From Somniosus microcephalus (taxonomy: Eukaryota), in assembly GCA_052327205.1 (NCBI GenBank), contig CM126214.1, positions 25,668,001 to 25,732,000 of the forward strand: a stretch of 64,000 nucleotides of DNA. The letters run 5' to 3'. Positions 273 to 57,809 of the stretch are shown piece after piece. The notes under the pieces were generated by a model. That model did not search any database and was not told the DNA's origin. It saw nothing but the letters and a program-made list of their open reading frames with translations. The position numbers and the translations under genes are program-made. Each line of letters begins with the position of its first letter. The first letter of the stretch is position 1.

Positions 273-534
273 TATGTCTGCAAGAAAAACCTAGATAAAT
301 TCCTTCACCCCTTCCATTAATTATTCCATAACTAATTATGCTGAAATGTGTGGCTTTCACTTAGAACCTTCCCACACAGCTAGCTTAAGATTGGGAATTT
401 GTGGGGATTGGTTATGCATGAACCCCTGTTTCATCTTTCTGCGGCACAGAGTGTTTCGATTGCCTGTATTTATTTCACAATATGAACTTTGTCTTTCAAA
501 AATCATCATAACTTCTATAATATGTTTCTTGCAG

Positions 535-896
535 GTTCCATTGCAAAGATTGGACTAATTGATGAAAACATCAACATTCAGAGACCAGACTGTTCCACTC
601 TGCAACAACATAGAGCAGGTCTACAGGATCAAATTCATCATCACATGGCTTTGGCAAGTTTTTTCCTGCCAGAGTCCCACTATGGAATCCCTGCTCCAAA
701 CCCGAATGTTAATCAGGCACCTGCCCTGTACCCCACGTACTGCCAGAGGGTTTCCCATACTCTGGCAGCTCGTCCCACCTCGCTCATTCACCATTCCCAT
801 AAATTATCAGACTTGATCCAAAAACCCAGTAGCATGGGGAGCCTGCGACATGCCAAACAACATGCTAATTTGCTGGGCCTTAACCTCCAATATTAA
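535..896 (+). CDS. Terminal coding exon of a probable paired-like (SHOX-like) homeobox gene with a C-terminal OAR-like motif
   Basis: Acceptor tgtttcttgcag|G at 534/535 (phase 1); open frame to TAA at 894-896. C-terminus KPSSMGSLRHAKQHANLLGL resembles the SHOX OAR KNSSIADLRLKARKHAEALGL. AATAAA at 974 and 1147. The homeobox exons would lie upstream of the window. Confidence 0.65.
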
Positions 897-973
897 AGAG
901 CTTTTGTATTAATCATCGAATATGTGGATGTCCACGTGCTTTATATAGTAGAACATTTGAAAGTGAACAAAAA

Positions 974-979
974 AATAAA
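974..979 (+). terminator. Polyadenylation signal of the + strand gene
   Basis: AATAAA about 80 nt after the stop codon; a second copy at 1147-1152. Confidence 0.5.
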
Positions 980-2435
980 ATGAGTTTACATTGAAATTTA
1001 ATTCCTTCGCTTTATTTAATTATTTTACTTGTATCACCCAAAAAAATTGCCTACATACAGGATAAGTGACGTTTAACTGAAACATGCATTTTTGAATGCA
1101 ATCTCCCCATTAAAGAAGTATAATAATTGTAAATACTGGTACACTAAATAAAAGGTCACTGTTTAGGCTGCTGCTCTGGAACATCTGCATGATTTAAGAG
1201 CCATCAAACAAAAGAATTAAAAATTGTCAATGGGGCCAAAGATCTGCAGCCCTTTTGGACGACTTCTGCTGTGGTTCCAGTGGGAGTGCTGTGGAAGAGA
1301 GGCAAATTAGGCCGGGATCCAGAGAGATTGGGTCTCAGCCTCCTGCCAAAGTTTTCTGATGGGGCGGGGTGCAGTGGAGCCTCCACCCACCCCAAACAAG
1401 GCCAACAGTGTAGATCGGGACAGGAATAGGGGAGTGGACTCCCAGCCCAGAGTTTCCACGTCCCCGGCCTATAAAACAGCAGATGAATCATTGATTCACA
1501 AGACTCGTAGCGAGACCTAATGTACCAGCCCATCGAATGGCAGAAGTCAGTTCCATCTGGGGTTCTAGACCTGGACTCCCGAATGGGAGGCAGTTTTGCG
1601 GTCACCTCTTGACCGGGCATCCAAAGCCACATTTTGCAGCATGTCCACCATTGCAGGGACTTGAAGTGTGCCTCCAGTGGCAGGAGCACCCACCTCAATT
1701 AGTTAAAATTAGGAAACCCCCTTCTGACACTGAAGAGTCTGCCAGGGTCAGCACAGGGGGTTCCTGACTGGCACATCCTGGCATTTACTCTGGGATGCTG
1801 CCCCCATAGACCCTCGGCCTCAGAGTCTGTACTTTATATCAACCAAGTATGATATTCAAAAAATTAAATGTGAGGTTAAATATAAGTTAACTGTTTATGT
1901 TTATAAGCTCTTCTATGGATTGAGTTTCATTAATTTGGTTCTCGAAGGTATAAGGTGCCGTGGTACTCTATACATATCTTTATTTGGTTGTGTCTTTATA
2001 CATCTGTGTTCTCCTTCATGCACCAATCATTCACCATAAGGACAGGTGAGCAGTCTCCAGCCAAACTATATATAGTTTATTAAACAGAAAACTAGGCATC
2101 ATTTTTAAATAAATAAGCTACACCTTGTAAAAGAAACCAGAAAAAAAAATTCTAGGCATTGAGATACATTCTATGAGAATGCAAATAGAGCCTCCATTTA
2201 AGAACATATTGGTGTTCACAGAGACTTCTAAAGATTTATATTAAAAGAATTACATCCCTTTCAACAGTTACCAACAAAAGACAGTCACGTTAAAAACTGC
2301 TTAATGACCTGTCAGTACGAGAGGTGCATGTTGCAGTGTGACCCACTCAGCTCAAGAACCTTTACTCCTGAGCTGGACGTTCCAAACTCAGTATGCTATA
2401 GACCCACCACAACTGAGGTGCAGAACTTTGAATAA

Positions 2436-30661: not shown

Positions 30662-32311
30662 CTGCAAAAGTAAAGAGGAAGCATTTAGAAATGGTACTAT
30701 GCAATCAAGAAGCTTTCAATAAAAGGAAGAAAGGACCAATTTGTAAGGCAGTGTGAGAACGTCAATACAGCCACAAGAAGCACAACTTGAGCTCAGACTG
30801 AGAATGAAAAAAGCTCAAAATTTGTTTTACTAGGTCTCAAACCTTCCCAACAACTAGCCTCATCAGGAGTAAAGTTTATCTGCACTTACTCAATTTACCA
30901 TGACCTATCCCATACATTGGAATCATTGTGCCCGCTGATTCTTGCCATGCTCCAGTTTAAAGAACACTTAAAAAACATGAAGCAGGAATGGTGCGGAGTT
31001 CCTGCTGCTGTTCTCAGTAGCTGGCAAGGCTACATTTATTGCCCATCCTTGGGTTCCCCAAGGTGGTTGGGGGCACCTTCTGGAGAAGTAATTGTTTTTA
31101 CAACCAAGAAGCCGGCAAGGCTACTTCATTGGGCATTAAGAGTCAACTATGCAGTGGAACTGGAGTCACATATAGGCCAGGCCAGAAAGGAGTGGCAGGT
31201 TGCCTTCCCCGAAGGACTGTAGTGAACCAGTTGGGTTATATTAGCAGCTTACATGGAGATTTTTTCACCTGCTGTCAGTCCACAAATTAAAAGATTTACT
31301 GAAATTACAACTGGTCAGGGGTTGCGTGCCCTGTACCACAAGCACTAAATTACATTGCTGTATTTGCTGGCATACGCCAGTTAATACACATCATGCCTGC
31401 TTTTACTGGTCATAAGCTCAACAAGTTGTCAGGTTTATTTATATTATTGTTTATGTTGCGGTTGTGTCACAAGTACTACACAAGGAGCTAAACACATGAA
31501 AGACCCTGACCAAAGTTCAACGGTGCAAGTTCCCGCTTGTTCAGTGCTAAAGGTCTGTTGATTGAGAAAAGTCTCGTCAATTCCTGCAATTTAATCAGTT
31601 GTCCAATATATTAAAAACAAAACTTGCAACAGCTCTCAAACACTGAGGTTGCTGTGTACAAGAAACATTGGAGCCACTTTATTGCTGCAGACACTCCAAC
31701 CCAATATCATTACGATGTTGAGCAATTATTCCAGATACGAATACCAGGAATTAAACTGAAAAGATAGAACAAGGGGAAGAACAGGATGCTCCTATTGAAG
31801 GATTATGGTTTTACAGAAGCATAGCTTTACACAAATTAACAAGAACCACTAGCTGCTTTACTCATTTACCAGTAAAACTGAAGTAGCATGCCACCACATC
31901 ATACCGCCCACTACAGGAATTGAAGATCTAGGATGTGTGCACATTCAATTGCATAAAGTACTCTGCTGCAAATAACTGGAAACAGAATAAATGTACATCA
32001 TTTACCCAAGACCATCGAACAAACCGGGTGATGCAAAGTACCGCAGGTCTGTCTTTAGTAAGCTGCAACTAAATTGCTAGTACAGACTTCTAATGAAGGA
32101 TCTCACCTAAAATGTTAACCTGTCTTTCACTTCAGATGTTGATTGCACATTTGACTGTTTTCTATTCTGACTTCAGTGAGTTCATATTAACGGTATCATC
32201 ACCTCATGACTATATAATGAAGTATCATTCTTGTTTGAGCTGTTTTGGGATCCCCTGAAGTTTTCATAAAGCAGAACTTTCCCAGTAAAACAGAAGAATT
32301 TGAAAACAAAC

Positions 32312-32397
32312 CTATAACAAGGCGTTGTGATCATGTACGAAGTGCAAGTGAAGTGTAACTTAAAATCAAGTTTTTCATGAGAAGATCCATCATCTGT
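32312..32397 (-). CDS. AP3D1: AP3D1 exon
   Basis: TDDGSSHEKLDFKLHFTCTSYMITTPCY. Confidence 0.95.
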
Positions 32398-32484
32398 CTG
32401 GGGGAAAAAAATAGAAATATGAAAGACTGAATATAATGCAAAGAAAATACAGAAACAGAAAAACTTGCCACTGACTGAACTTAC

Positions 32485-32573
32485 TTTGATTATAAATGTA
32501 AGTGTTCCTTTCAGTTTCTGTGGCATGACGATGCTTTCCACAGTAAACACAAACCGAGCTTCATTTGAAACTT
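32485..32573 (-). CDS. AP3D1: AP3D1 exon (NAGNAG acceptor; may start at 32570)
   Basis: VSNEARFVFTVESIVMPQKLKGTLTFIIK|gtaagt. Confidence 0.93.
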
Positions 32574-33381
32574 CTTCAGAAACAAAATGCAATTCAATAG
32601 GTTAGTCTTCTTAGACATGCAACAGTTAAATATAATTCAACAGCAATCAGTTCAAGTAATTCTACTGGGCACACAGAAATATACAATGCCCAAATGGTTT
32701 CACAATTTCATCAGAACCCAAAGCTTGTGTTGCAGCCTTCCAGCATACACACAGTTCCACTGTTGTTTTGAGTTTATACAGATTGCTGTCCCTTTTCTCC
32801 TGTGGTGTGTGAACTCCTCCACGGACATGTCAGGGAACAAAGCAAGCATGGCAAAACCAAATGTTGACAGACCGTGTGGCTGAAGATAGTGCACTACCAC
32901 CAAAAGGAAGGTTACTGTTCATGTATGTTACATAGAGGCAGTGACACGAGAATAAGTGAATGATAGCAATTTGTCCATCACGGTGAAAAACTTATTTGAG
33001 CAAGTGTAAGAAAATGTACAACTTGGCGAGATATTGTAAAATGAAACCAGAAAATGAGAAATACATAGGTCAGTCAAAATCCATAAAGCACTAAGACCCT
33101 CCCCGGGAACCCGAAACGTTAACCTGCCTTTTCTCTCCACAGATGCTGACTGAGCGGTTTCTTATTTCCAGCACTTTAATTTCCAGCAACTGCAGTTTTT
33201 TTTTATTCCCCTTTGTAGTTGTACAATATTAAGTTTATTCTTCAGGCATTTAATTTGTGGTAAAGCTCAAGAAGTTTAAAACCAATTTCTAGAGCAATGC
33301 TCAAATAGTTAGGAGTTATCTCAGTGTAATCCTAGAAGCAAATAAAATTACTGATCATGCCATATCAATGAAGCGTCTTAC

Positions 33382-33571
33382 CTGGTGGAAGCTGGAAAGG
33401 AACCGCTATACCATCGTGTATGGAGGACCCTTCTGATCGGACCAGTTTAGTGTTGAGAGAGTCTAAAACATTGAACTCCATTGACTTGAGATAACCGCTA
33501 CTTTGGTTTTCAAAGATAACCGATACAACCACTTGACTTCCATCCTGAAGATTTCCTTGAATATCACACAT
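33382..33571 (-). CDS. AP3D1: AP3D1 exon (ear domain)
   Basis: MCDIQGNLQDGSQVVVSVIFENQSSGYLKSMEFNVLDSLN…VPFQLPP|gtaaga. Confidence 0.95.
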
Positions 33572-35249
33572 CTAGTAAACAGTTTAAAAAAAAATGAAAC
33601 ACGTTTATGTATTTAAATAATCATTTTACACTAAAAAAAGCATTCAATACACTAGTCAAATTCCCATGGCATTGCACACGGGGAATCAAGACCAAGTATA
33701 GTATGCAGCTCAAGGAGGAACAATGGGAGGGGCAAAGGAGAGAAAATAAGACAGGACTGGATGGCGGAAAGACAAGGCAGCAAACATTCTTAGCCACAGG
33801 GGTTGGGGTGGTTCAGCTGTCACTGCTAAGCCTGTCTTTTCTTGACAGGTTTTGGGGGGGGGGGGGGAGGGAGGTGGAGAAAAGGCATTGGTGGCCTTTC
33901 AGATTAGTGGTGGGAATTTCACATAAGCTTCATTCCTCTCCCCAGCTCAGACTGTGTCACATGGTGTTGATCATGTGGTTTTAAGTTAAGTTGTGGCGAA
34001 TTGCATCGGGTTTATTGAACTACTAGGGGAGCAACTTTGTGCTGTTGGGGGTGGGTTACGAAAATGAAATCACTGGACTTCCCCCACTCAATGGTGATGG
34101 GCAAAAGTGGTTTTCCATTCTAATTAGGCCTCCGACTTTGTCTTTTGGAGTCGAGTTTCCTGCATTTCCAGGGGATCTAGCTTGCCTGTTAATGCTGGTA
34201 ACGATTGAGGTTCCACTAGTCGAGCCTGTAGCACTTTCCATCGTTTGGAAGTTTTAAAGGTATGGGGCGGAGGAGGGCGGAGAAAGGGATGCTGAATATG
34301 ATGCCGTTTAAAATTCCAGTAATACTTTTGGAGATTGCTTTTTCAGGTGATTAGTATCGAGGGGTTGCTGTACTGGCAGGTTGCTTAAGTGTTTCTTCAG
34401 ACTGTCAATCTTACTGGAACAGACTGACTGTAGAAAACTGGATATACCACAGCACTCTTGAAAATACTGTGTCTTTATTATGGAGCTATATGGGAAGTTT
34501 CGCTGCCAAAACCAAATGCTAGGGGAGTGCTTTGCACCCATCACAGGACGGGCATTTTTAGTAGCAAATGCTTATCATGGCACCACCTACAGGCACAACT
34601 GGTACTGCAAGCAACTGCTGGCACTTACAAAAAAATACACAAGGTGAAGAACTAAATATGAATTTATTTATCAAATTAAGAGTATACAAAGCTCCCTTTC
34701 TAAAACATTGTTGATTTCCCTGAACAAACATCTTCAGTTATTGGTGAAACATGCTGGGAGGAGAAGAGAAAAAAATCAGGAGTGGATGACTAAGGGCCTG
34801 TTTTCTTATGCTATGCTGTTCAGGAACGATCCTTTTGCCTGCTATTCTCATACTCCAATCATCAAGGACTCAGTCTTTGATGAAATTATTTTTCTCTGCT
34901 ACGGCTCCTTCTCAATGTGTGGCCTTCTACTGCTTGATATAGAATGACAGACATGCGAGTACATCCCCACTTGATGTTCTCCAGGTCTATGAATCTTGCA
35001 ATCAGTCTGTTCCAGTAAGGTACCTATCTGATATCAATAGATTTTTGGATATTAAGGAAACCAAGGGATATGGAGATATTGTACCTCAACTCCACCTTCC
35101 CGCACTATCAGCATGATCGTATTGAATGGGGGAAGCAGGCTCGAAGGGCCGAATGGCCTGCTCCTATTTCTTATGTTCTTAGGACATGTTTCAGTTGGTT
35201 TATACACCTCCCTACAGTTGGTACACTAATCAATTGTACATTTAAAAAA

Positions 35250-35925
35250 AATTTGTATATGGGATGTGGACGTCACTGGCATTTATTGCCCATCCCTAAT
35301 TGCCCTTGAGAAGGTGGTGGTGAGCCGCTTTCTTGAACCGCTGCAGTCAGTGTGAAGGTACTTCCACAGTGCTGTTAAGGAGAGTGTTCCAGGATTTTGA
35401 CCCAGCGACAATGACGCATCGGTGCAATACTTCTAAGTCAGGATGGTGTGTGACTTGGAGGTGTTCCCATGAGTCTGCTGCCCTTGTCCTTCTAGGTGGA
35501 AGAGGTCGCGGGTTTGGGAGGTGCTGCTGAAGAAGCCTTGGCGAGTTGCTGCACTGCATTTTGTAGATGGTACACACTGCAGACAAGGTACGCTGGTGGT
35601 GGAGGGAGTGAATGTTTAAGGTGGTTGATGGGGTGCCAATCAAGCGGGCTGCTTTGTCCTGGATGGTGTCGAGCTTCTTGAGTGTTGTTGGAGCTGCACT
35701 CATCCAGGCAAGTGGAGAGTATTCCATCACACTCCTGACTTGTGCCTTGTAGTCAGTGGAAAGGCTTTGGGGAGTCAGGAGGTGAGACACTCACTGCAGA
35801 ATACCCAGCCTCTGACCTGCTCTTGTTGCCACAGTATTTATGTGGCTGGTCCAGTTAAGTTTCTGGTCAATGGTGACCCTCCCCAGGATGTTGATGGTGG
35901 GGGATTTGCCGATGGTAATGCTGTT
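35250..35925 (-). mobile_element. Non-LTR retrotransposon RT C-terminus and 3' end
   Basis: YKAQVRSVMEYSPLAWMSAAPTTLKKLDTIQDKAARLIG. Confidence 0.85.
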
Positions 35926-36316
35926 GTTTGCAAATAGATGGTCACATCCGCTTGATCTATAATTACCAGTGTGACCCTAACCTGTTGTACCATTGTATTA
36001 GTGTATCACAATCTTACATATTTGTGTTGTAAACTGAGAATTACAGAAACATCTGTATTAAAAAAAAAAAAATCTGCTAGCTACAACTGTATGGAATCTG
36101 ATCACAGATGTGTAGTACAAGCCATACCCAAGACCATATAGTTTTCCACCTCGAGGAAGGTGCAAGAAATGGAAACAGGTATGAATGGGGATTAAATAAC
36201 GCAGGAAAAATTGAAGAACAAATATTCTGGAGCTATTTAAAAAATGCAATGCTTCATAAAAATTGTAACTTACATAAAAACTGTAATAATTTATACTGAA
36301 GTATTATGGTACTCAC

Positions 36317-36364
36317 CATTTTAATATAGGAATTTTCTGCCAGAAGGTAGTAGCTGGACATTGG
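36317..36364 (-). CDS. AP3D1: AP3D1 exon
   Basis: PMSSYYLLAENSYIKM; 48 nt, cag|…|gtgagt. Confidence 0.95.
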
Positions 36365-36399
36365 CTGTAAAATATTAAAAACATATGAATATAAAAAAA

Positions 36400-37020
36400 G
36401 ACAAATAGGAAATGACCCACTGATCCATCCAGCTTATCCAACACAGTTGTGATGCATCCAGTTGGAGCCATGTAATCTCCTGGGAGGAGCAAAAAGCACA
36501 GGCCAATTTGGCAGGGGGTGGGGGCGGTGGAAAAAGAGAAATAGCAAAATTCCTCTCCAATCGCCTTAGGCGATTGAAACTATTCCAGGAGGTCAGTGAG
36601 ACCCTGCAGGATACCTATTTCTTGTACATGAACCCTGCCCCAACCAAAAACAGGCCCAGCTATCACTTGAAGGAATACAGCAAATAATCATTCCTGGCAC
36701 GAGCTGGCAATCTATTCCACTGTTCTGTGGGAAAAGAACAGCTTAACATCCAACCTAGCTCTGTCCTTACATAACTGGTATAAGCATGACCCCTGGTCCT
36801 CCCTAACCTATCCAGTTGAAATAATAGGCCTACATAAACAAAGCTAGTCCCTTCATTATTTTATACATCTCAATCTAATTACCCATATGTCTGCACTTCT
36901 CTAAAATATAGAGACCCAGCTCATTGGGCCTATCTGGGAAACTGGTATTTTAAACTGGGAATTATCTTACAGCCCTTCTCTGGACCCTTTCTAAAGCTTC
37001 AATAACCCCCATCATGTGAG
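36400..37020 (-). mobile_element. Degenerate CR1-type LINE 3' region
   Basis: Minus strand contains LERVQRR- and RTRGH-like motifs. Confidence 0.55.
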
Positions 37021-37277
37021 CTTTTCAGAAACACTTTACACTTAATTCTTGAGTTAGATTTGTCGCAGTATTTCTGGGAACACAGGATTATATAAAATGG
37101 CCAAATATTGAAGCATGTTCAGAACAAAACATTCAACCAAGACATGTGTGTTTGAAATCTCGTTGCTATACGTATTAAAGATTAGTCTTCAGTGGGAAGC
37201 TTTTCAAATTGTGACTGGTTGTAAAGATAGTTCACCTTTTTCTTGGGTTAGGTTTGCTAGATTTAAACTGTCAACTA

Positions 37278-37594
37278 CAGGAAACTTTTTTTTAATCTGG
37301 CACCGACGGGACGCCGGTTCATCAAAAATTCCGGATAACCGAAAGCTATAGTAAAAGATACGGAGTGGAGAGCTCCGTATAAAGCAACACACCCTGTTGC
37401 TTAGCAACAGGTTCAGAACAATGGCCACAAGTTCCAAGCGTCTCTGTAGCTTAGCAACAGCTGCAGCCACACCCTTGCACAGCAACAGATCGAGGAAGGC
37501 AAGTAATAAAACTTACTTGAACCTACTCCTGAATTTTGCCTGTTAACCGAGATTTCCGGTTATTTAGGTGTCGGTAAATCAAAAAAGTTTCCTA
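37278..37594. mobile_element. Tc1/mariner (Tigger-like) MITE, copy 2
   Basis: TA-flanked CAGGAAACTTTTT … AAAAAAGTTTCCT; reverse-oriented homolog of 23539-23853. Confidence 0.75.
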
Positions 37595-38123
37595 TACTGT
37601 ATATTCTTTCACATGTCCCATGCATATACATATTTGCTGGCTTTTTAATTCAAGCATTAAATAGGCAGAAAAATCGTTAGTAGGCCAGACTTACCAATGG
37701 CCATTAAAGAATGCCAGAGAACAAGTTACCCTCCCACCCCTCACCTGTAGCTGGTGTGTGGCTCAGACAGACTCAATGGGCAGGAAAGGGAGGGAAAAAA
37801 GGGGAACGCCTCAAATAAAAATTTAAACTTAAAAAATTAGCTTTTGAACCTGAAGGTTACTGGCAATATTTAATACACAATGCTGCTCGACTTAATTAAA
37901 TGATTTCTCATTAGGGTCTGCAAATTTAAACATTTTGAAGCGGTTTCTCATCTATCACATTATCTTACAGAAAATAAGTGCATCAAAGGACCAGCAATAA
38001 AAGCACAACATAAATATCCACAATTTTTATTCAATAGCATTTATTTTGAAACAGTTCGCTCTGTATAAAAAGGACCACCATCACCCTGAATCTCAATACC
38101 TGCTAGTGTACAAATGAACATAC

Positions 38124-38264
38124 CGGTAAGGGCTCATCGTCCAAGCTGCCGTTCTGAACAGACTCTGGAGCCTCTTCGTCACTGTGGTGTTTCTTTTTCT
38201 TTGATTTCTTTTCTTCTTTTGACTTGTCTTTCTTATGTTTCTTCTTCTTGTGTTTTGACGACTT
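38124..38264 (-). CDS. AP3D1: AP3D1 exon (hinge)
   Basis: KSSKHKKKKHKK…EEAPESVQNGSLDDEPLP|gtatgt. Confidence 0.92.
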
Positions 38265-39599
38265 CTAATGCAGCAGTGGCACAGCAATCAGAAAATCTTA
38301 TTACAGGCCCCGCTACTTAAAAAGGTCTGTTTAACACGTTATATGCTCATGCTCAAGCAAAAAGCACTAACGTCAATTTCTATAGTGGCTGGTTATAGTG
38401 TCTTAAGTGCTCAGTTTAGTTTAGGCAGAAACAGAAATGCTGTCTTTTTTATTCAATATGATGCCCTCCAAGAAATGCAAAAAGCAATTCTTTCAGCAAT
38501 TAAGTTCAGTCTCTTTATTTGCATCATGCTCTGCAAATTGTAGCTGGCATAATTAGCACAATGCGGATTCAGCCTGGAAATGTGCGGTTTCTTTAATTAT
38601 GCTGTCTGCTCCAAGCACTTAACAGTGGTTCTCGAGTCAAAACAGAAAGCTCTGGCAGCTGCGGCAACATCTAGTTCAAGACTTTAAATGCGCTTCAGGC
38701 AATAACATCTTTATTGAAAGTGGTGATCGCCTGCCATAAACATTAACACTGACCCTGCAACTACACTGAATATCAGTGGTCAGCATCTGAACTGTGCGGT
38801 TTGATGTCAGAAACTCTGTCCCGAGATTATAAACTGATTGCAGATTAGAATTAATGGGCAAGAGGAGCACAAGCATTGCCTGATGTGAGTTTTAGATAAA
38901 CTATTTATTGCTCCCTGAAAGACAGAATCTGTTCCAGGAATAAAGTTTGGGAGAAATTCACAGACTGTGTCAAGTTTGTTTAACTTGAGTCTATCTCCTG
39001 ACCAGACAGCCCGGAAACAATTTAGATGAGGTGTCCCAAAGCTGGGCGATTCGAACACACTCGCAGTCCCTTATAAGTATATTTCAAATATGTATTTCTT
39101 TCCCATTATACTGGCCATCAACGGGCAAATCACGTTCGCATGAACGCGCCTGCTATAAGTGGTGGGGATTGTACTAAAGTGCCATTCAATTTGGGCTTGT
39201 GTTTTGATGTGCACTTTATAACCAACGAGAATAATAAAATTCCTGTTGGTGGCACTGTTGAGTTAATAGACATCACTGCTTAGCTACACCACTAATTGAA
39301 CTTAATACAACTGCAGTCCCTATTGTATTGTAGCCCTGGGTCTTATTTATTTACATTTGTACACTTCTCACAAATTTGCGACGTGCACATACAAACAACA
39401 TTTTGGCATACCAAATATTTTGAGGCATATATTACTTAAATATATTGGAATATCCAACACAACTTGGTACCACAATTAAGATGGAATACAAAAAGGGATA
39501 TGAACCTTTGAAGAGAGGACTTTTCTTAAATTCTAATCAAATTGTTTCTGATCCCCATATTCTGATACACAAATTAGCCTTTTACTAATTTACATGCCC

Positions 39600-41440
39600 T
39601 AGCCATGAACCCACATTTTTCTCTAGTTTCTATTCTATCTCCCCTCAAGTGTTCTCCGAGCTTATCTTGTCCACGAGATCCATTTCCCGCTCCTTTGTCC
39701 CTATTTCCACTAAGCGAATCACCTAACTTCCGTTCCCGACACCCATACTAGCTGACATTGTAAATGGCACTCTGTTCCCTCAGGTACAGTCCCTCTCCCC
39801 TTTTTTAAATCTACACGATCACCCCCCACCTCAAAGAATGAATCCTCAACCCCTCTGTCTTTGCAAACTACCACCATCTCCAACCTCCCTTTCCTCTTCA
39901 AAGTGCTCAAATGTGTCGTCACTTCCCAAATCTGTACCCATCTTTCCTGCAACTCCCTGTTTAAATCTCTCCAAGAAAGCTTTTCACCCCTGCCACAGCA
40001 TTGAAAAGATCCAAACCAAAGCCACAGGTGTCTCCTGTGACTATGCTGCATTATCCATGATGGATTTGCCAAAATGATGCATTTAAGGGGCGGTTAGATA
40101 AGCATGAGTGAGAAGGGAATAGAGGGTTACGCTGATAGAGTTAGAGGAGGCTTGAGTGGAGCATAAACGCCGGCATGGACTGGTTGGGCCAAATGGCCTG
40201 TTTCTGTGCTGTATATCCTATGTAATCCTTCTTACCCTCCAGGACCTCTTCCGTTGCCCAGCTCAGCAGGAATGCCCTTGCATGGTCCCAGTTAGCGAAC
40301 TGATCGGAGCCAGAGTAGCTCTGTCACCTCCAGACTTGACTATTCCAATGCACTCCTGGTCGACTTTCCACCTTCCATTCTCTGTAAACTTCAGCTCATC
40401 TAAAACTCTGTTGCCCTACCCTGCACCAAGTCCCACTCATCCATCACCCTTGTCCTCGCTGACCTACTTTGGAGAGGTACCACCAACGCTGCCTCAGCAA
40501 GATCCTGCAAATCCACTGGCAGGATAGGCGCACCATCAGTGTTCTCGCTCAGGCCAACAACCCCAGCATCGAAGCTTTGACTACGCTCATCAGCTCCGAT
40601 GGGCGGGCCACACCGCCCGCATGCCTGATACGAGACTCCCAAAACAAGCGCTCTACTTGGAGCTCCGACACGGCAGGAGAGCCTCAGGTGGGCAAAGGAA
40701 ATGCTTCAGACACCCTCAAAGCCTCCTTGAAAAAGTGCAACATCCCCTCGGACACCTGGGAATCCCTGGCCCAAGACCTCTCAAAGTGGAGGAGAAGCAT
40801 CCGGGAAGGCGCGGAACACAGTCTCTTCACCGGGAGCAAGCGGAAGCCAAGCGCAAACAGTGGAAGGAGCACACGTCAACCCAAGAACCCCACCCACCCA
40901 CCCCTTCAACCACTGTCTGCCCCACCTGTGACAGAGACTATAGGTCCCACATTGGACTCAGTCACCTGAGAACTCATTTTTAATGTGGAAGCAAGTCATC
41001 CTCGGTTCCGAGGGACTGCCCAAGAGAGAGACAGACTTTGGGTCCCGGTCCTCCAATATAACATTTTCATCCTCCTGTGAAATCCCTTCATGGCCCCATC
41101 TCCAGAACCTTCTACAGCAGTACAAACCCCTGCCCTCCCACCCCATGACTCACTGTTCCTCTGACTCTGGCCATTTGTTCCTGCCCCCACTCCTTTTGTC
41201 CCGCCACTGCTGGCCATGCCTTCAGCCATTGAGGCCCTATGCTCGGAAATTCCCTCCCTAAACCCTTCTGTCTCCCCACCCCTCTCCTCCTTAAAGACCT
41301 TCCTTAAAACCCACCTGTTTGACTAAACCTTTGTGGTCACCCCTCCTATTATCTGCTCCTTTGATTCAGTGTTAATTTTCTGATTACAACACCATGAAGC
41401 ACCTTGGGATGTTTTTCTATATACAGTAAATGCAAGCTGT
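39600..41440 (+). mobile_element. L2 LINE remnant interrupted by a CR1 tail (about 40070-40228) and an RTE element
   Basis: L2 motifs (ANYxxISNLPFLxKVL; SRLDYSNALL) and an L2 tail at about 41430. Confidence 0.7.
40469..41025 (+). mobile_element. RTE (BovB-like) LINE 3' end
   Basis: ERYHQRCLSKILQIHWQDR…RMPDTRLPKQALY.ELRHG…DTLKASLKKCNI…CPTCDR…HLRTH zinc finger. Confidence 0.9.
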
Positions 41441-42117
41441 GTGTGCTTGTTTGATTACCCAGCAAACATCAATGGGTTATGATTGTGCTTAAGCCCTTAA
41501 TTTTCTAAATAAAACTAGGGTGCCATTATAATAATGACCAACATGTACTTACTTGCAAATTATCTTCAGTAATAGTTTATACTTCAGAATATTTAACTAA
41601 CATTTTTTGAAATACATGATCATAGCAATTCAAGGGTTGTGCTGCTGAATGTAACGTTGTATGTGCACGGAATTCTAATTGTGCTTTAAGTAGAACAAGA
41701 TACTTTAACAGTCACTTAGTAACGTACAGAAGAGTGTATGCCTTAAGCAACAACTGTTTTCAAGCAAACAATTTTCAAAAGGAACTGAAGATAACAGGAA
41801 ACAACTCCAAGGTGAAAAACCAACAAAGGTTAAATTATTTAAGTGGCAATTATTAAAGGACAGAATGACAAATCCCAACATTACCAAAAGGATCTCGGGG
41901 AAGTGATTTGCGAAGTTTGATAAACTGGACGAAGTACTTCACTTACTGCAGCAAGCATACTTGAGTGAGCAGCAACAATTCCCTCGTTGAAATTTTGCGC
42001 TTGCTGAATTAAAAAAATTTTTTTTTTTTTTTTTTTTTAAACACGTGTGCTTTAGCACAAAATTGCTTTACGCAACAGCGAGTTGCCAAATCAGTCTCCA
42101 TAGAAATTGGTACTTAC

Positions 42118-42195
42118 TGCATCCTCTTCCTTATCTTCTTTTTCTTTTAATGTCTCTTCTGGTTCAGAAGCCACTTCATTTCTAAGTGGTTCTGG
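42118..42195 (-). CDS. AP3D1: AP3D1 hinge exon
   Basis: PEPLRNEVASEPEETLKEKEDKEEDA; 78 nt, phase 0-0, ttttgcag|…|gtaagt. Confidence 0.8.
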
Positions 42196-42956
42196 CTGCA
42201 AAAAGACATCAAAACTTTTCAACTGCTGAATGTCATCTGCACGACAACAAAACAATTTTCTTCACTTAATTTCAGTTCTCACCGGAAGTCAGCCAGCACA
42301 CCTGCAAACTTATACCAGCATTGCAATTATGATATTAATGTCAGCACAGGACTAAGTTGTAAAAGTATTTGTTCTCAGATTGTGGGCAAGGCTATATCTG
42401 TTGCCCATTCCTAGGTGCCCCTAGTATTGCTTACTAGGCTGGCAGGTTCCTTTCCTTGAAGGACATAAGTAAACCATTTGGGTTCTTACAACAACCCAAC
42501 AGCTTTCATGGTAATTTTGTCTATCATTAGATTAGTTACTAGATATATTGAATTCAATTTCACAACGAGTCATGGTGGGATTTAAACTCTCAACCTCAGA
42601 GCAGCTAGTTCAGTGCCATGACTAGTACACCACTGCACTCTGTGCCAGAAATGTTAATTCTAGAGTATAAATCCTCCACTTGCATGTAGTTATACAATTT
42701 TAAAGGAGCACAAGGAAGCCCACTGTATTAAACAATTTAGACACAAGTACTTCAAACAGCATAGAACAATCATAAAGACCAGCAAACATCTCCAAAACAC
42801 TGGTAGTAAAGTTCTTGGTTATATTTTTGATTTTCAACTATTAACTATACAAATACATACACAAATAATTCAAATGCATCTTTACCCTCATATTTCAAAA
42901 AATACAAGAAATAGGCAAGTTGACATTCTTGTTCTCTCAAATGATTTTTGTATAAT

Positions 42957-43458
42957 ATTTGCCATAGAGGGAGTGCAACGAAGGTTCACGAGATTGATTC
43001 CTGGGATGGTGGGGACTGTCGTTATGAGAAGAGATTGAGTAAACTAGGCCTGTATTCTCTTGAATTCAGAAGAATGAGGGGGGGATCTCATTGAAGCATA
43101 CAAAGTTATTACAGGGCTTGATAGGGTGAATGCTGGGAGACGGTTTCCCTTGGCTGGGGAGCCTAGAACCAGGGGCCACAGCCTCAGGATAAAGGGAAGG
43201 CCATTCAGGACTGAGATGAGAAGACATTTCTTCACAGAGGTTGGTGAATCTTTGGAATTCTCTACCCCAGAGGGCTGTGGAGGCTCAATCATTGGGTATA
43301 TTCAAAACAGAAGTCGACAGATTTCTGACTAGCAAGGGCATCAAAAGGATATGGCAATAGGGCCAGTGAATGGAGTGGAGGCAGGAGATCAGCCATGATC
43401 TCATTGAATGGCGGAGCAGGTTTGAAGGGCCTACTCCTGCTCCTATTTATGTTCTTAT
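42957..43458 (+). mobile_element. CR1 LINE 3' end
   Basis: AIEGVQRRFTRLIPG…RTRGHSLRIKGRPFRTEMR; same subfamily as 1-272. Confidence 0.9.
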
Positions 43459-43645
43459 AACATATCAATACAGACCCCACACACACTATTTCCAGTCTGA
43501 AAACTAATATAAATAGGAACTAGCTACCTATGTTTGAGAAATTTGTTGTAAGCTGCATGGAATCCTTTGCAAACCATCCAGCTTAGGGAGCACGATCTAA
43601 AATGAATAGCTGGTTAATGGGTGAATGGAACCCAAGTATACTGAC

Positions 43646-43699
43646 CTGTGATTTGCTTTGTACTGGATCATTAGACAGCCAGAAGTCCAAATCTGATCC
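43646..43699 (-). CDS. AP3D1: AP3D1 hinge exon (DLDFWLS motif)
   Basis: GSDLDFWLSNDPVQSKSQ; 54 nt, phase 0-0. DLDFWLS is a conserved delta-adaptin motif. Confidence 0.9.
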
Positions 43700-43809
43700 C
43701 TTAACAGGAAAAAGCAGAAAAAAATTCCAGCAAGATTGTAATCAAGATCTCTCATTTTGGAACAGATTAAAAATTACATAGATAGATGTAGAGAACACAA
43801 AAGACAAAC

Positions 43810-45145
43810 ATAGCGGGGCACTTTGCTGCAAATCCCTGTTTGAATCTCTTCAATCAGGTTTCCGTCTCTGCCGCAGCATTAAAACGGCCCTAATCAAATT
43901 CATAAATAACCTGCTCTGTGACTGTGGACGTGATTCCATTTCCCTCCTCGACCCATCTGTATCCTGACAGAGTCGACAACATCATCCTGCACCAACATCG
44001 CTCTTCTGTTGTCCAGCTCAGTGGAACTGCCCTCGCTCAATTCTACTCTTGCCTATCTAATCGTAGCCAGAGCATCTCCAGCAACGGCTTTTTCCCCTCT
44101 GCACCATTACCTCTGGAGTTGCCCAAGGATCTATCCTTGACCCTCACCTCTTCCTCATGTAAATGCTGCCCCTTGGAGACATTACAGACATGGGGTCAGC
44201 TTCCATGTGTACGCCAATGACACCCAGCTCGCCCTTTCCACCACCACTTCTCTAACCTCTCTGATTTGAGAGGCTTCTTGCCAGACATCCAGTCTTGCAA
44301 TTTCCACCAGCTAAACATTGGTGACCAAAGCCACAGTCTTTGACCCCCGCCACAAACTCCGTACCTTCACCGCTGGTTTCATCCCCTTCCAAAGCATCTG
44401 TCTCAGGCTGGAGCAGACTGTTTGCAACATTGGCATCCTATAAGACTGGAGCTGAATTTGACACTATATCCTCTCCATTACACTGACTGCCTACTTCCAC
44501 CTCCATATCATCACCTGGCTCTAGCCCTACCTCAGCCCATCTGCTGCAGAAACCCTCATGTATGCCTTTGTTACTTCCACACTCAACCATTCCAATTCTC
44601 TCCTGGCCAGCCTCCCAGCCTCAAACTTACATAAACTTTAGCTCATCCAAAGCTCTGTTGCTAGTATCCGATCCTGCACAGAGTCCCACTTACCCATCAC
44701 TACTGCCCTTGCAGATCACTGGTTCCAGGTCCCCCAGTGCCTCAAATTTTAAATTCTCATTCTCTTTGGATTCTGTCAGGGGCCTTTTTGTATTCTCCGC
44801 AAACTCCAGCAGAACCACATACCACTCCCCAAACTCTCCCTTCCTGACTATGGCCTCGTGCCTCTCCTCTCCATTTGCCCCATCATTGGCAGCCGTGCCT
44901 GAAACCACCTAGGACCTACACTTGGGAATTCTCTCCCTGTACCTCTCTGCCTAATAGGTTGTTCAAAGATGTGGGTTTTAAGGAGGGTCTTAACAAAGGA
45001 GAGTGAGTTGAAGAGGTTTAGGCAGGGAATTCCAGAGCACAGACAACTGAAGGCAGGGCAGCCAATGGTGGGATAAGGAGGAGAGGCAATGCACAAGAGG
45101 CCAGAATTGGAGGAACAAAGAGTTCGGAGGGTTGTCAGGCTGAAG
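43810..45145. mobile_element. L2 LINE remnants (+ strand RT, then a - strand 3' end)
   Basis: QSGFR…TALIK…GVAQGSIL…FHVYANDTQL-like motifs. Confidence 0.7.
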
Positions 45146-45455
45146 GATTCATATGCTGCCAGGGTAACTTTTACAATCACCTGCATGAGCAGACCAGCCT
45201 TCAAATTTCATGCCTCATCCAAAAGATGGGACCTCCAACAGTACTGCATTGAAGTGTCAGCCTAGTATATGTGCCAAAATGTTGGAGTAGGACATGAACC
45301 TTCTGGATCAGAGGGGAGAGCTCCAATAGAAAACCTAGCTGATAATCAAGTTCACCCAATGAAGGAAGAAGTTATTATGTTTAATATTTACTTGCTTAAT
45401 AAAAACAGATTCAAAGGAAGGCTATTTTTTGTCAAATGTACAGCACAGTACTCAC

Positions 45456-45587
45456 CTCTCCTGTGGATTTTTCATTTGCTTCCTCTTTGGATGTCGGTGT
45501 AATAATTTCTTCTTTAGGGGCAGCATGTTCATTCTCTGCATTTTCGTAAGACTTCTTGTGTTTTTTGCTAACTTTCTCTCTACCTTT
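45456..45587 (-). CDS. AP3D1: AP3D1 hinge exon
   Basis: KGREKVSKKHKKSYENAENEHAAPKEEIITPTSKEEANEKSTGE; 132 nt, phase 0-0, acag|…GAG|gtgagt. Confidence 0.8.
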
Positions 45588-46198
45588 CTGTACCAAGAGA
45601 ACAGATAGCACAGAAACAAAGCATTAATCACATGTGAAGAATATAATTGAATTCTCCCCAGCCAGCAGGCCAGGACTGCCAACACAACTTCACCTGATCA
45701 ACAGGAAGTGCACTCCTGCAGGGTGCGCAGCCCAGCCTACCTTTCCTGCTGTTTGAATTGGAAGGCTACACTGCTAGAGTCAGACCTAATTTAATCAGGT
45801 GAAACTTACTCAACAAGAGTTGGTGATTTGCTGTAAAACTATTTCCAGGTGGTAAATATTCCTGGTCATGTATTTTTTTTTTAAATCTAAAAATACTTGC
45901 ACTTAACCAGGGCATGACTAGGATGGTTACTGTAAATGTTAGCACTTGGAGTATTAACCAATACCTACTGCATGTGTTTCCAATTAATTATGACAAGTTG
46001 TGCAACAACTTTTACCAAACCAACACAAGGAAAAAGATGTACCAAGCTTTCAGGAAGGGAAATGATAAGGGCGAGTAGTTCTTAAACAGCAACACATTCC
46101 TACAACACAAGGTCTTAAAAGGAACTCCTGTGAAGCACTGTAGGACATTTTACTATGTTAAAAGGCACTATATAAATGCAAGTTATGGTTGTTGAGTA

Positions 46199-46332
46199 CA
46201 ATGTTCCCTTTCATTTTTTTTGGGTGCGTGGTCCATTCAAAATACCACGCATGCATGGTTTTTCCCATTTAAAAGCCGGTGAGCCGGCTGTACAGGAGCT
46301 CCAGGGTGCTGCGCGGCTTAAAGAGAACAATG
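46199..46332. mobile_element. Small hAT (Charlie-like) MITE
   Basis: TIRs CAATGTTCCCT / AGAGAACAATG; 8-bp TSD GTTGAGTA / GTTCAGTA. Confidence 0.7.
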
Positions 46333-47226
46333 GTTCAGTAACAATTAGCCAAATGACTAAGAATTAAGAGTAGAATCTTACTGTTCTAAAAATGGCAACA
46401 TTCATCATCAACGATAATGAATTCTCCAACATGGCTAAAAGGAAGCAGGGACTTTGAGAGCATTTTAAAAGCACACCACTGCATCTCATGCTTTATTAAG
46501 CTTGTAGTTCACTACTGTAACACAAGTAACCAGGACTAGCCATTAAAACCATTATAACTTATTTATATGTCCAAGAGCCAGAACCACTGTTGAAATAACT
46601 GAAACGATACACCGCTAGAATTAACATCCAGAGTGTCGACAGTAAATAATGACACCGTGTAATAATCGTAAGACTGTCATTTTATGCTGGAACAGTGTGT
46701 AAAATGCTAGTTACATCACAGGAGAAAAGCTGTAATTTTGTTGACTTTCACATTATCAGCATCTAACATTTTCAGACCATGAACACAGGCTAGGGGCCAT
46801 GTAAAGCTCTTCCCTCTGCTCTCCTCCAACAACGTGCCCGAACCTCAACCTCAGACAAGCACCCCCACCACACCAACGTAACTTGCACATTAACTATCCC
46901 AGCCATCGAGAGCCAGATGGACAGTTAGTCGTAATTAAGATCTGAATCATAGTTAAGTTCGTGTTGTAGTTTTGTACTCAATTTGAACTAGTTTTGAGGT
47001 ATTTTACTGCCACATTTGCAGCAATTAGTCCAGCCTGGATCTGAACTGGATTCCAGAGGTTGAGAGAATATCTGGTTATCCTACTGTGCTATGCCATCCA
47101 ATAGAGAGGCACCATTTAGATATTACTACTGGCAACAGTCTGATTTGTTCTCGATTAAGTCACCCTAAACAGTGACAGGGACCAACAGAGTTCCATAAAC
47201 TCCAAATTCAGAACAGTTTAGCTTAC

Positions 47227-47380
47227 CCTTTTCTCTTTATCCTTCTTTTTGTCTTTTTCTTTCTTTGCCTTCTTAGATTTTTTGCTTTTTTCCTCTACTG
47301 GGGCAGCTTCAACTTCTGGCGACTTCTTTTCAGTTACTCGGTGTGTCCTCACAGGCAGTTTTTCATTATCTGTCAAAGGC
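47227..47380 (-). CDS. AP3D1: AP3D1 exon
   Basis: (K)PLTDNEKLPVRTHR…KKDKEKR|gtaagc. Confidence 0.93.
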
Positions 47381-47694
47381 CTTTAAAATTGCATAGAAAT
47401 AAAGTTTTACAATTAAGTGGCTATTATTAGTTTAATAAAATGATACAGATGTGCAAAGGGTTTGGATTTCCACTCACTGCTCCATAATTTTAGTTTCACC
47501 AAACATTAAAAAAAATGTTTCAACAATTCATTCACAGAACAAACCAGGTGTGTTAAGGTGAACACAACTCATTGTCATGCAAGTAGGAAAATCCACGGTA
47601 ATACTCGCAAAACAATTTGATAGACAATTCTCAGCACATCCACATTTGGAAGAAAGCTTGAACCTTTTGAAAACATGTTGCTGATCAAGTTTGG

Positions 47695-47697
<3 letters not shown>

Positions 47698-47732
<35 letters not shown>
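47698..47732. repeat. (TA)n microsatellite
   Basis: Read directly from the sequence. Confidence 0.95.
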
Positions 47733-47736
<4 letters not shown>

Positions 47737-48739
47737 TGAGTGAGAATTAAATGTTTTCCTAGCGAATACAGTTTTCCAACAAGACTACTTCCAAGAACAA
47801 GCCAAAACACAAATCAGGCAATTTAAAGTCTATTTGCACAATCTGAAACATCATTGTATAATTAAAAAGGGAACACTAGTGTTTGAGTGTAGTTATTACC
47901 AAAGCATTAGAGGATTTGGGGGGGGGGGGGGGGGGGGAGGAGAAAGAGAGAAAGAGAGAAAGAGAAAGCATTTCAAAATTACTGACAAGTATTGTAAGGT
48001 AATGAATGGCCAGTTTTCTTGGGGAAACTTCAGAACATGAGAAAGCTGGTTAAGATCAGAAAGCAACAGGCAACTTGCTAATGCACACAATCAGGCACAA
48101 ATAGTGCAAAGCATGTACAAATTTCGGAGGAAGTCAGAATGCTGAGGAGAGTTTATCAAACTGGGAGAAAATCTGAAAGCAGAGGTTTAGTTCTTAAACA
48201 AGTCAGTATGAGAAACATTCTACTCAGAATACCAGCATGCCCATTTCACAAACAACGTAGAATTGGAATAGACAAAGCCCATTATCAAGTATCCCAACAA
48301 CAATTGTAAGGCAAGTAATGGATAGATACAAGCACAATATAAATTGCCTATTTTGAGATGTTGGGAGAAGCATTAAAAAAAAAGTTAGAGAAGTATAAGA
48401 ATTTCAACCTTTTCACAGCTTTCTAATGTAACTCTGATGTAATTTTAACTGAACGTCAATAACTATATGGCATCATGCCCACACCACATCTGGGTTTAAC
48501 CCTTTGATGACTGAAATTGCAAATTTGAATATTTAAGGAAAATTTTGAATAGCCTGAAATTTTATTGCATGTGTCAATATTCAGCTTTAACAAACAAAGC
48601 CATTTTTACCATATGAAAGTGTACTGGGTAGATATCAAAGGGATAAATCTTTAAAAAGACACTCAAACCCATCTCCAAGTCAAATTGATTGATGAAAGAT
48701 CACAAAGAATAAAAACACAAAATGTTACATTTTACATAC

Positions 48740-48763
48740 CTTCCTTTTTTCATAGGATTTAGA
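48740..48763 (-). CDS. AP3D1: Candidate 24-nt AP3D1 microexon
   Basis: aaag|TCTAAATCCTATGAAAAAAGGAAG|gtatgt; phase 2-2 and stop-free; about 160 nt of AG-free, pyrimidine-rich sequence upstream. Confidence 0.55.
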
Positions 48764-48850
48764 CTTTTGTTGGGACACAAAGATGATGGTTGTGCAAGCA
48801 GTAGAAAGAGAGAGAAAGAATGACAGGAAAAAAATGGAGTGGCGTATTAA

Positions 48851-48855
<5 letters not shown>

Positions 48856-48903
<48 letters not shown>
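48856..48903. repeat. (GA)n microsatellite
   Basis: Read directly; reads (TC)n on the AP3D1 sense strand. Confidence 0.95.
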
Positions 48904-48910
<7 letters not shown>

Positions 48911-50126
48911 AGATAGTCACAGAACTCATTAAACAGCCATAAATTAGTGATATTCATTTTGGAGCAATTATAAAACTAAGCATTGATGTTAAAAATTGCT
49001 GTGTTACCATAACACATTTTGCTATTACTGTAGTTACATCTAGAATCAGAATAGTTATCATGAAGAAAGGCCATATGGCCAGAGGTGCAATATTGTTACA
49101 ATTGTGATTTTACATTAAGATTGAGGGGAAGGGGGGGGGGGGGGGGGGGGGAAGGAATCTTAGTGTCTGTATCAAATCCTGTATGTGCATTCATGTAAAC
49201 CCAACTCCTGTTCAAAAGTACAGTAATGCATTTGATATTAAATATAGTTTAAAATGCATCCACACATCTTTAAGTATTTCAAGTTCAATTGGTCATAATT
49301 ATATGTAGTTTACATAGGCAACATTACACCAATTTAAAATGACTTTTGTCAACCTGTTTGAACGGATATAACTATACTGAAAGATTTTATTGAGTGTGCC
49401 ACTTAATGCTGTTTGTGTGCTTTGCAATTTCCCATATGGCAAACATTTGATCATGACTGGACTGTCTGGGGAGATGCTGAGCAAGGGTTTAAATAGATGG
49501 GGAGATAAGAAGAAGCAAACAAAAATAGAGAGTCGGTTCACGTGGCTCATTTAAATGGAAGACCAGACAGCCAGCTCCAGGATGCAAACTTGGCCACTCA
49601 AAGCCCTCTGTTAGAAGTGATAAAATGGCAAGGAAAGGAAGAGAAAGAGAGAACTTGATCTAAAGAGGGGCAGAAGACATCCAAAAAATGGGAGAATACG
49701 TCTAAAATTGGCTTTTTCTAAAGCATCTAAATTTGATAAACTGAATGAAAGAGCAAAGTCCAATAATTTTTGTTTACAAATGTGCAAACGTAAGGGGAAA
49801 AGGCTCAAATTATCTGCGAAAAAAACTGGGTTAATTTATTAATTACAATGCACGAAAATGGTGATTAAACATTAGCGTACAAAATGTACTTGCACTCATG
49901 CAAAGTATATGGCAGTGAGCCCCCAGTACTTGAGAATGACCCATTTATGATCATACTCGTACAGCACTAGTTTATAAATCACCTGAACATTTACCAGAAC
50001 CACTAATAATTTGCTTTAAGCAATTTGTGTAAATGTCAGCTGCAAACAAAATAAATGCTAATCGTTTCAAAAACAGTAGTTTCTTGGCTTTGTGACAATA
50101 CTAACAAATAACAAATGTATACTTAC

Positions 50127-50200
50127 TTATCCAAATCAATGTCCAGTGCTCTGTATGGATCATTAGGATCTTTATCATCATCATCACTAGGCAAGGCATT
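50127..50200 (-). CDS. AP3D1: AP3D1 exon
   Basis: NALPSDDDDKDPNDPYRALDIDLD(K)|gtaagt. Confidence 0.95.
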
Positions 50201-51274
50201 CTAAACAAAACCCAAAAACATTGAATACCATACTGTGGTGTTTAAAGTTCAGTGTGAACTTGTAGCATTAAGTGTTACCTTCTGCTAGAGATGTAGAAAG
50301 CATTGTATAGATGGATTATCGATAGGGATTAAAAAAAGTACAACACATAACCCTTCACTGCAATTATGTCGTCACTGGATTTTTCCCCACTATTCATTTC
50401 ATCTCAATGTGAAGTACCAGTGTACTACTTGGGGTCCAGCCAAATACCATGTTATAGCAATAACATGAATTAATTTACATAAGAACATAAGTAGGAGCAG
50501 GAGTAGGCCATACGGCCCTTCGAGCCTGCTCTGCCATTCAGTAAGATCATGGCTGATCTTCGACCTCAATTCCACTTTCCTGCACTATCCCCATAGCCCT
50601 TGAAATGTTATGTTCATTAATTTGGCATCCACTGTGGAAAAAATCCATTACAATGAAAGCTAGAAAGGGATCTGCAATAAATTAATTTAATAAACTCAAC
50701 CTAACTGATTTATAAACAATCTAATTTATGGGAATATACTTTTGAGTACATTAATAGCATGAGAGAGGAAGTGATGGATAATAATTTTTGACTTTAACAA
50801 AGCATTTGAACGGTTCACTATGTGCCTACTGTATTTATCCAGTACCTCTACAGCCTTCCGGTCTATATAATTCACACCATTTTATACATGCTGACTTAGA
50901 AACTAAAATACTTAAAGAACCAAAAATGCTAAATTTTTGGTATCTGGAAAAATACTTTGGAAATTTTAAAAAGCTTTCTTAACATTACCAAAATTCAGAG
51001 AGAGCAAGCGCAACAGCAAAATACAAGAGAATGAGAGAAAAAGTGAGAACACGAATGATAAAACTTGAGGAAAAAAAAAGGTGAGAACGCATGCACATGA
51101 CAGAAAAAGTAAGAGTAACCAGAGAGCGCATGACAGAGCACACTTGTGACAGTGCTTAACTGTGTACAAGAGAGCATGAAAAAGTAAGAGACAAGGCAAG
51201 AAGGCAAAAAAAAAGTGACAAGAGACCGACATCAAGAGAGCGAGATCAAAAGTATGCGAGAGAGAGAGAAAAGG

Positions 51275-51650
51275 AAAAGAAAAAGGATCTGCCTTTATAT
51301 AGGGCTATATCATTTCCTGAGAAGTCAGTCAAAGTACTTCATACAAAAGCGTTTTGATGTGCAGTAACTCAAGTAGGCAGATGGGACAGCCAATCGGCAC
51401 ACATCAAAATCCCCCAAACAGAAACACGATAAATGACCAGTTAATCTATTTCTTTGATGATACTGGATCAAGGACGATGGTTGGCTGGAACACCTGAACT
51501 CTTGGCTCTGTGGAACGGAATCTTAAATATCGGCTTGCACAGAGACTACCTTGGTTTAACATCTCATCCAAAGATGGAACAGTGCAGTACTCCCTCAAGA
51601 CTGCATTAAAATGACCCCCAAGATATGCAATATTGCAATCAAGGGTGAAC
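51275..51650 (-). mobile_element. Degenerate Deu-domain SINE with an expanded low-complexity tail (about 50990-51280)
   Basis: GGTTTAACATCTCATCCAAAGATGG…CAGTGCAGTACTCCCTCA, shared with 6228-6655. Confidence 0.6.
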
Positions 51651-57800: not shown

Positions 57801-57809
57801 AGAAGTTAG

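Follow-up and report, generated by a model that had tools for sequence, protein, structure and literature searches.

A putative second, fast-evolving Dmbx homeobox gene of cartilaginous fishes, with its last exon near AP3D1 in Somniosus microcephalus

A coding exon near the start of a 64,000-nucleotide stretch of Somniosus microcephalus DNA (the whole stretch analysed, hereafter the window) is judged by sequence comparison to be the final exon of a second Dmbx gene of cartilaginous fishes, one that evolves fast and coexists with canonical DMBX1 and for which we propose the name Dmbx2. The best explanation of the evidence as a whole, which we consider likely, is that Dmbx2 is a DMBX1 ohnolog from the early vertebrate genome duplications, lost in bony vertebrates. 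Gene models already exist at NCBI under the names “DMBX1-like” or “uncharacterized”. Dmbx1 is described as single-copy in terrestrial vertebrates, teleosts being the group with more than one copy (PMC2954992), Dmbx is described as lacking a 1R/2R paralogue “with a similar function” (PMC10972751 and its preprint), and the neural-crest table of the latter paper lists only Dmbx1, with no second jawed-vertebrate copy.

A second Dmbx copy across sharks, rays and chimaeras would alter the ancestral gnathostome repertoire, and the statement that no paralogue of similar function exists becomes testable in catshark or skate embryos. The two copies clearly had asymmetric fates, the homeodomain of one being invariant from shark to dog, while that of the other has changed by 15-27% and its OAR motif has eroded. 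Probes and annotations called “Dmbx1” in cartilaginous fishes may denote either gene. The surprise is moderate, given that models exist under automatic names and that hidden shark ohnologs are a familiar kind of result.

Structure and reality of the last exon

The exon opens at 535 with a 2-nt overhang and runs for 120 codons to a TAA at 894-896 (Table 1). The codon split at the 535 boundary encodes Gly, which is also found in 7 of the 10 aligned paralog rows from the database. A preliminary description of this DNA had reported a phase-1 acceptor, a 120-codon exon and a stop, all of which we found in the sequence; for the poly(A) signals that it also reported, a motif scan returned candidate hexamers at 974, 1109, 1147 and 1216, in an AT-rich region where chance matches are possible.

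Because 43 stop-to-stop ORFs in the window reach at least 110 aa, the frame of the exon being one of them, ORF length is weak evidence for an exon, and we accepted this one as real on homology. The window peptide (P0001, 119 residues) was 87% identical over its whole length to a Heptranchias gene model (P0002; E-value 2.7e-59), and a tblastn search with residues 208-328 of P0002 hit window positions 531-893 (E-value 1.8e-64). Among longer proteins, 7 of 93 candidates were related to P0001, all from sharks apart from one skate, with a best identity of 87%; the best-matching shark protein carries the NCBI automatic name “DMBX1-like”. Searching a 50%-cluster library yielded two matches, both from rays and both already members of the paralog group described below. 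The internal repeats of the window, which cover about 15% of it, leave the exon uncovered; bases 3-272 match a repeat present elsewhere in the window. With P0001 alone as the query, neither Pfam (at E<=10) nor the PDB returned a match, and the ESM Atlas returned nothing usable.

The exon is thus confirmed by homology as real and, on the sequence comparisons, ends a homeobox gene of the paired-like type. A tblastn search found no homeobox exons in the window, and the exon is connected to a homeodomain by orthology only. One homeodomain-like tblastn match at 16516-16599 (E-value 0.47) was discarded as chance, its sequence reading like the repeat-derived ORFs of the window.

Table 1. Features located in the window, with positions counted from its first nucleotide
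Feature	Position	Strand	Evidence or remark
3' splice acceptor of the last intron	515..534	+	pyrimidine tract and AG at 533-534; phase 1, Gly codon split
Last exon of the putative DMBX1 paralog, coding part	535..896	+	119 full codons and stop
Stretch detectably homologous to the canonical DMBX1 C-terminus	621..884	+	tblastn and HMM
Eroded OAR motif, shorter by one residue than that of DMBX1	822..881	+	12 of 21 columns as in the DMBX1 tail
Probable 3' UTR with candidate poly(A) hexamers	897..1221	+	motif scan
Ig ORFs of a two-Ig-domain receptor gene	14158-14589 and 11185-11529	-	both match Pfam V-set
Membrane-like exon of the Ig receptor gene	about 9141-9245	-	likely transmembrane
Neighbouring AP3D1 gene (exons sampled in two ORFs)	32182..60475	-	PDB AP-3 delta matches

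Assignment to the DMBX family

Searching with full-length P0002 yielded 2247 matches among 3312 candidates, the best 120 of which comprised 14 shark, ray and chimaera proteins and 106 proteins with the DMBX1 homeodomain, most of the latter named DMBX1. A profile built from 12 sequences of the group recovered the same 14 proteins first and then only DMBX1-type proteins (best 120 of 2166). All 13 complete homeodomains of the group, which belong to database orthologs of the window exon, have K50, and in each of them the recognition-helix residues V47, K50, N51 and A54 are unchanged. They match DMBX1 at 44-51 of 60 residues, that is 73-85% identity (seven shark rows and Pristis reach 80-85%; the remaining five, three rays and the chimaera among them, reach 73-78%); a within-family range of 80-100% homeodomain identity is quoted in PMC2211742, and Dmbx1 is described as a K50 gene (PMC2954992). 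Across both searches, all 142 non-group rows, from shark to dog, share one identical homeodomain, in a sample that consists of the best-scoring matches. Directly N-terminal of the homeodomain, a conserved Dmbx segment has near-invariant columns common to DMBX1 and paralog rows. The full-length relatives are about 328 aa long with one homeodomain, and a language-model (Atlas) search gave its top rank to DMBX1 (0.94), closely followed by DRGX and PHOX2A clusters (0.93).

The exon itself could also be compared with canonical DMBX1. Residues 263-360 of a shark DMBX1 (P0035) matched the window by tblastn with 36% identity (621-884; E-value 2.9e-5). We built an HMM from the C-termini of 102 of the 106 canonical proteins, leaving out four without the tail motif; it scored P0001 at 15.8 bits, against 8.7 for the best of 2000 shuffles, and ranked the ORF of the exon first of 2178 window ORFs (E-value 0.0015). 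This HMM is weak elsewhere, only 6 of the 15 group rows exceeding the best shuffle score. On these comparisons the exon almost certainly belongs to the DMBX family.

The preliminary description had read the exon as the end of an OAR-bearing homeobox gene and possibly a third Shox paralog. Its first part stands insofar as the gene is paired-like with an OAR-derived tail, and its second does not, the homeodomain of the orthologs grouping at the family level with a known gene, DMBX1. SHOX proteins do carry a C-terminal OAR, which the tail of the exon resembles, and the SHOX homeodomain has Q50, not the K50 of the group. The Atlas clusters shown, headed by DMBX1, include no SHOX row, and neither the best 120 of 2247 matches nor the best 120 of 2166 contain a protein named SHOX. 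The Dmbx segment before the homeodomain is shared with DMBX1, and the intron at 535, which had been likened to a phase-1 Gly intron lying just after the homeodomain in SHOX, sits 79 residues past the homeodomain end (as placed in the ortholog P0002). Taken with the 73-85% identity to DMBX1, this leaves a third SHOX paralog with a practically negligible probability. We rejected SHOX, SHOX2 and RAX2 on the homeodomain; human RAX2 lies at 19p13.3 (PMC2211742).

A paralog group in sharks, rays and a chimaera

The 14 database proteins (from sharks, rays and Callorhinchus) and the window peptide formed one group with a support of 100/100 in a tree that also included 17 of the 106 canonical proteins, 32 rows in all (no outgroup, long branches flagged). 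The order within the group is near the species phylogeny, with the chimaera outermost, the batoids together and the galeomorph sharks together. Stegostoma (zebra shark) has both genes, the canonical DMBX1 (P0035) on a 104-Mb contig and the paralog (P0005) on a 46-Mb contig; they are 40% identical overall. Because this species carries both, and because they fall in separate groups (100/100), the paralog is not a one-to-one DMBX1 ortholog. That it might be a paralog retained in chondrichthyans had been suggested beforehand, and every group member among the best 120 of 2247 and the best 120 of 2166 matches does come from a cartilaginous fish.

DMBX1 from shark keeps 81-83% identity to its lungfish and coelacanth counterparts. 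The paralog reaches 75% when two sharks are compared, 52-63% when a shark is compared with rays and 47% when it is compared with the chimaera, whose ortholog was not recovered by exon-only searches. The N-terminus and homeodomain of the paralog are far better conserved than the linker.

We found no description of a second Dmbx gene in the full-text literature covered, subscription journals lying largely outside this coverage. The available parts of PMC2211742, PMC3166657, PMC2491631, PMC10525774 and PMC4423293 mention no shark Dmbx paralog. The accessible supplements of PMC10115646 contain no match to “dmbx”, and those of PMC10208646 none to dmbx1, but none to ap3d1, mknk2 or mob3a either.

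Erosion of the OAR tail

Pfam OAR was detected in none of the 15 paralog sequences and in all 4 DMBX1 controls. The tail of the exon is nevertheless identical to that of DMBX1 in 12 of 21 aligned columns, one residue being gapped, so that the earlier proposal of an OAR to be found with Pfam holds for a degenerate OAR-like tail and not for a Pfam match on the peptide. By its sequence, the motif is homologous to the OAR of DMBX1 but degenerate. A homologous tail is present in 11 of the 14 database members and in the window; of the remaining models, that of Heterodontus (P0011) stops just past the exon boundary, that of Callorhinchus (P0014) stops inside the tail motif and that of Narcine (P0015) has an unrelated tail, which may reflect lineage-specific tail loss or annotation error.

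These altered or truncated tails, together with the fast divergence and the eroded OAR, could be taken to mean that the gene is decaying, or is a pseudogene, and retains little function. We consider this very improbable: the frames are open and the homologous tail is kept in 11 of 14 database proteins as well as in the window, the recognition-helix residues are unchanged in 13 of 13 homeodomains, and the N-terminus and homeodomain are conserved far beyond the linker. The exon probably encodes a low-constraint C-terminal tail in which the regulatory role of the OAR has been lost or changed.

Chromosomal setting

AP3D1 had been named as the neighbour of the gene, and we confirmed it downstream on the minus strand through PDB matches to the AP-3 delta subunit at 32182-32601 (E-value 1.2e-18) and 60140-60475 (E-value 2.2e-11). 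In the first of these ORFs (-), two consecutive AP3D1 exons, corresponding to AP-3 delta residues 1047-1076 and 1077-1115, share a single reading frame, with no stop in the short intron that separates them. We scanned 300 of the 342 non-repeat ORFs of at least 36 aa between the exon and AP3D1 (150 of 178 on the minus strand and 150 of 164 on the plus strand) and detected no kinase or Mob domain, as expected of MKNK2 or MOB3A, in a scan that can miss short exons, so that support from local synteny is indirect; the Pfam matches obtained were Ig, GIY-YIG and reverse transcriptase only.

The Ig matches belong to a two-Ig-domain receptor gene lying between the Dmbx exon and AP3D1 (9141-14589, minus strand). 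Its ORF at 14158-14589 matches pIgR (summed repeats) and BTLA (E-value 5e-5) in the PDB. The likely transmembrane exon has a lysine inside its hydrophobic stretch, and the tail may be very short. Adaptor-coupled activating immune receptors have such a transmembrane lysine. Retroelement remnants were located at 19082-19606 (-), 10088-10705 (+), 25283-26815 and 56289-57424 (both -), on the evidence of a GIY-YIG endonuclease match, a weak reverse-transcriptase match and LINE-like ORFs recognized by eye.

Published gene orders place DMBX1 and AP3D1 beside different members of the same families: MOB3C-MKNK1-KNCN-DMBX1 in cattle (PMC4472243) and AP3D1-IZUMO4-MOB3A-MKNK2 in human (PMC6585094). In the bamboo shark, the supplement of PMC10972751 has a Dmbx family member at 29.9 Mb and Mob3c at 29.2 Mb on chr11, and an Ap3d1 family member at 25.1 Mb and Mob3a at 21.6 Mb, 3.5 Mb apart, on chr31; its rows are unnamed, and we read their identity from the place in each family. 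The same supplement scores AP3D1 as the CLGL copy beta2 and gives AGL and CALR, both on chr11, the label alpha1; it labels the DMBX1 family CLGQ/CLGM, not CLGL, with duplication class “nd”. Its family table gives one Dmbx each for gar, frog and chicken, and also one for the bamboo shark, so that it misses the paralog. On hagfish chr7 it has two Dmbx-named genes, one of them directly followed by MKNK and MOB3 genes (140.39-140.62 Mb). Because a hagfish Dmbx adjoins MKNK and MOB3, the DMBX-MKNK-MOB3 block looks older than the jawless/jawed split.

Origin of the gene

We propose an ohnolog origin because DMBX1-MOB3C and AP3D1-MOB3A lie on sister genome-duplication chromosomes in the published tables. 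Dmbx2 would be the ohnolog on the AP3D1/MOB3A copy, the sister copy bearing DMBX1, MKNK1 and MOB3C, and it was probably lost in bony vertebrates; this loss is read from the best 120 of 2247 and the best 120 of 2166 matches.

The gene could instead be a DMBX1 duplicate that arose in the chondrichthyan stem, moved beside AP3D1 and diverged fast, with no bony-vertebrate loss. Its presence in chondrichthyans alone among the matches listed fits such a history, as do the failure to detect MKNK2 or MOB3A between the gene and AP3D1 and the differing CLG labels published for DMBX1 and AP3D1 (PMC10972751). An AU test on 17 rows, unrooted and without an invertebrate or cyclostome outgroup, left a chondrichthyan-only duplication unrejected (p 0.098), but dropping Callorhinchus, Pristis and Canis lowered the value to p 0.019 on 14 rows, again unrooted. 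A stem duplicate would further need a chance landing on the chromosome with the sister MOB3 copy, and the two Dmbx-named hagfish genes (PMC10972751) also argue against it; we consider it unlikely. It is also conceivable that some bony vertebrates (coelacanth, bichir, gar, lungfish or reptiles) still have the ohnolog in a more diverged or unannotated form. In favour of this, canonical DMBX1 fills the rest of the best 120 matches, and the chimaera ortholog, only 47% identical to a shark copy, was itself missed by exon-only searches. Yet the 12-sequence profile added no new member (best 120 of 2166), the matches from coelacanth, lungfish, gar, bichir and sturgeon carry the canonical homeodomain, and the family table has one gene each in gar, frog and chicken, although it misses the shark paralog too (PMC10972751), and we regard survival in bony vertebrates as distinctly improbable.

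Within the preferred reading of Dmbx2 as an ohnolog, a more specific version falls, in our view, just short of an even chance. Dmbx2 would stem from the first vertebrate genome duplication (alpha1 versus beta2), would possibly be the ortholog of the OAR-less hagfish copy, and would have been lost once in the bony-vertebrate stem; it would have kept K50 DNA recognition while losing its OAR, and may compete, under different regulation, with DMBX1/OTX in shark midbrain, retina or cranial neural crest. If so, the gene has been kept for more than 400 million years in cartilaginous fishes, and the working view of Dmbx as a gene left single-copy by both vertebrate genome duplications would be overturned.

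Proposed function

DMBX1 and OTX proteins prefer K50-type sites, and the OAR is a modulating module. Dmbx2 would encode a transcription factor, about 328 aa long, with a paired-like homeodomain of the K50 type. Because its recognition-helix residues 47, 50, 51 and 54 are unchanged, it would be expected to bind the same K50-type sites as DMBX1 and OTX and to repress, or compete with, OTX-driven transcription, a prediction that we regard as evenly balanced. Repression or competition would act through the conserved N-terminal region and the homeodomain, with regulation altered through the tail encoded by the last exon. DMBX1 is thought to be a repressor promoting cell-cycle exit in retina and midbrain (PMC4974023, PMC2954992) and is reported to bind OTX2, blocking OTX2 activation of p21 (PMC10707059).

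Comparison with known systems

The closest comparison is with DMBX1 itself (also MBX or OTX3), with which the paralog shares K50, identical residues at 47, 50, 51 and 54, the pre-homeodomain segment and a weakly homologous C-terminus ending in an OAR-derived tail. Unlike DMBX1, whose homeodomain is identical in 142 of 142 rows, the paralog changes 9-16 of 60 homeodomain residues; it is also about 35 aa shorter, has an OAR below Pfam detection and adjoins AP3D1, not MKNK1/MOB3C. We take DMBX1 to have one long last exon, so the intron of the paralog at 535 may be extra. SHOX and SHOX2 likewise have a paired-like homeodomain and a C-terminal OAR, but they are of another family, with Q50 in place of K50, and SHOX is absent among the best matches listed.

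The hagfish gene annotated “DMBX1-1” (EA30952, supplement of PMC10972751) is, like the paralog, Dmbx-named and has a homeodomain without an OAR match. Its orthogroup is not the main Dmbx one and is given a “Vertebrata” origin; the gene was named automatically, and the other hagfish copy is placed in a different Panther family (PMC10972751). Orthogroup OG_8269 has no further rows in the part of this hagfish supplement examined. Unlike the shark paralog, EA30952 adjoins MKNK/MOB3 and is 110 Mb from AP3D1 (PMC10972751). It is a candidate ortholog of the shark paralog.

The teleost genes dmbx1a and dmbx1b (PMC2954992) are retained Dmbx1 duplicates as well, with divergent C-termini in the teleost pair. 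They derive from the teleost duplication and have the canonical homeodomain, whereas the shark gene is separate and either older or of the shark lineage. Pdx2 is a differentially retained homeobox ohnolog. Alx3 (PMC3166657) is similarly a homeobox gene copy from genome duplication, retained by some lineages but not by others and changing faster in sequence. Alx3 and Pdx2 belong to other families, and the Dmbx paralog differs from both in that the members found here are all chondrichthyan.
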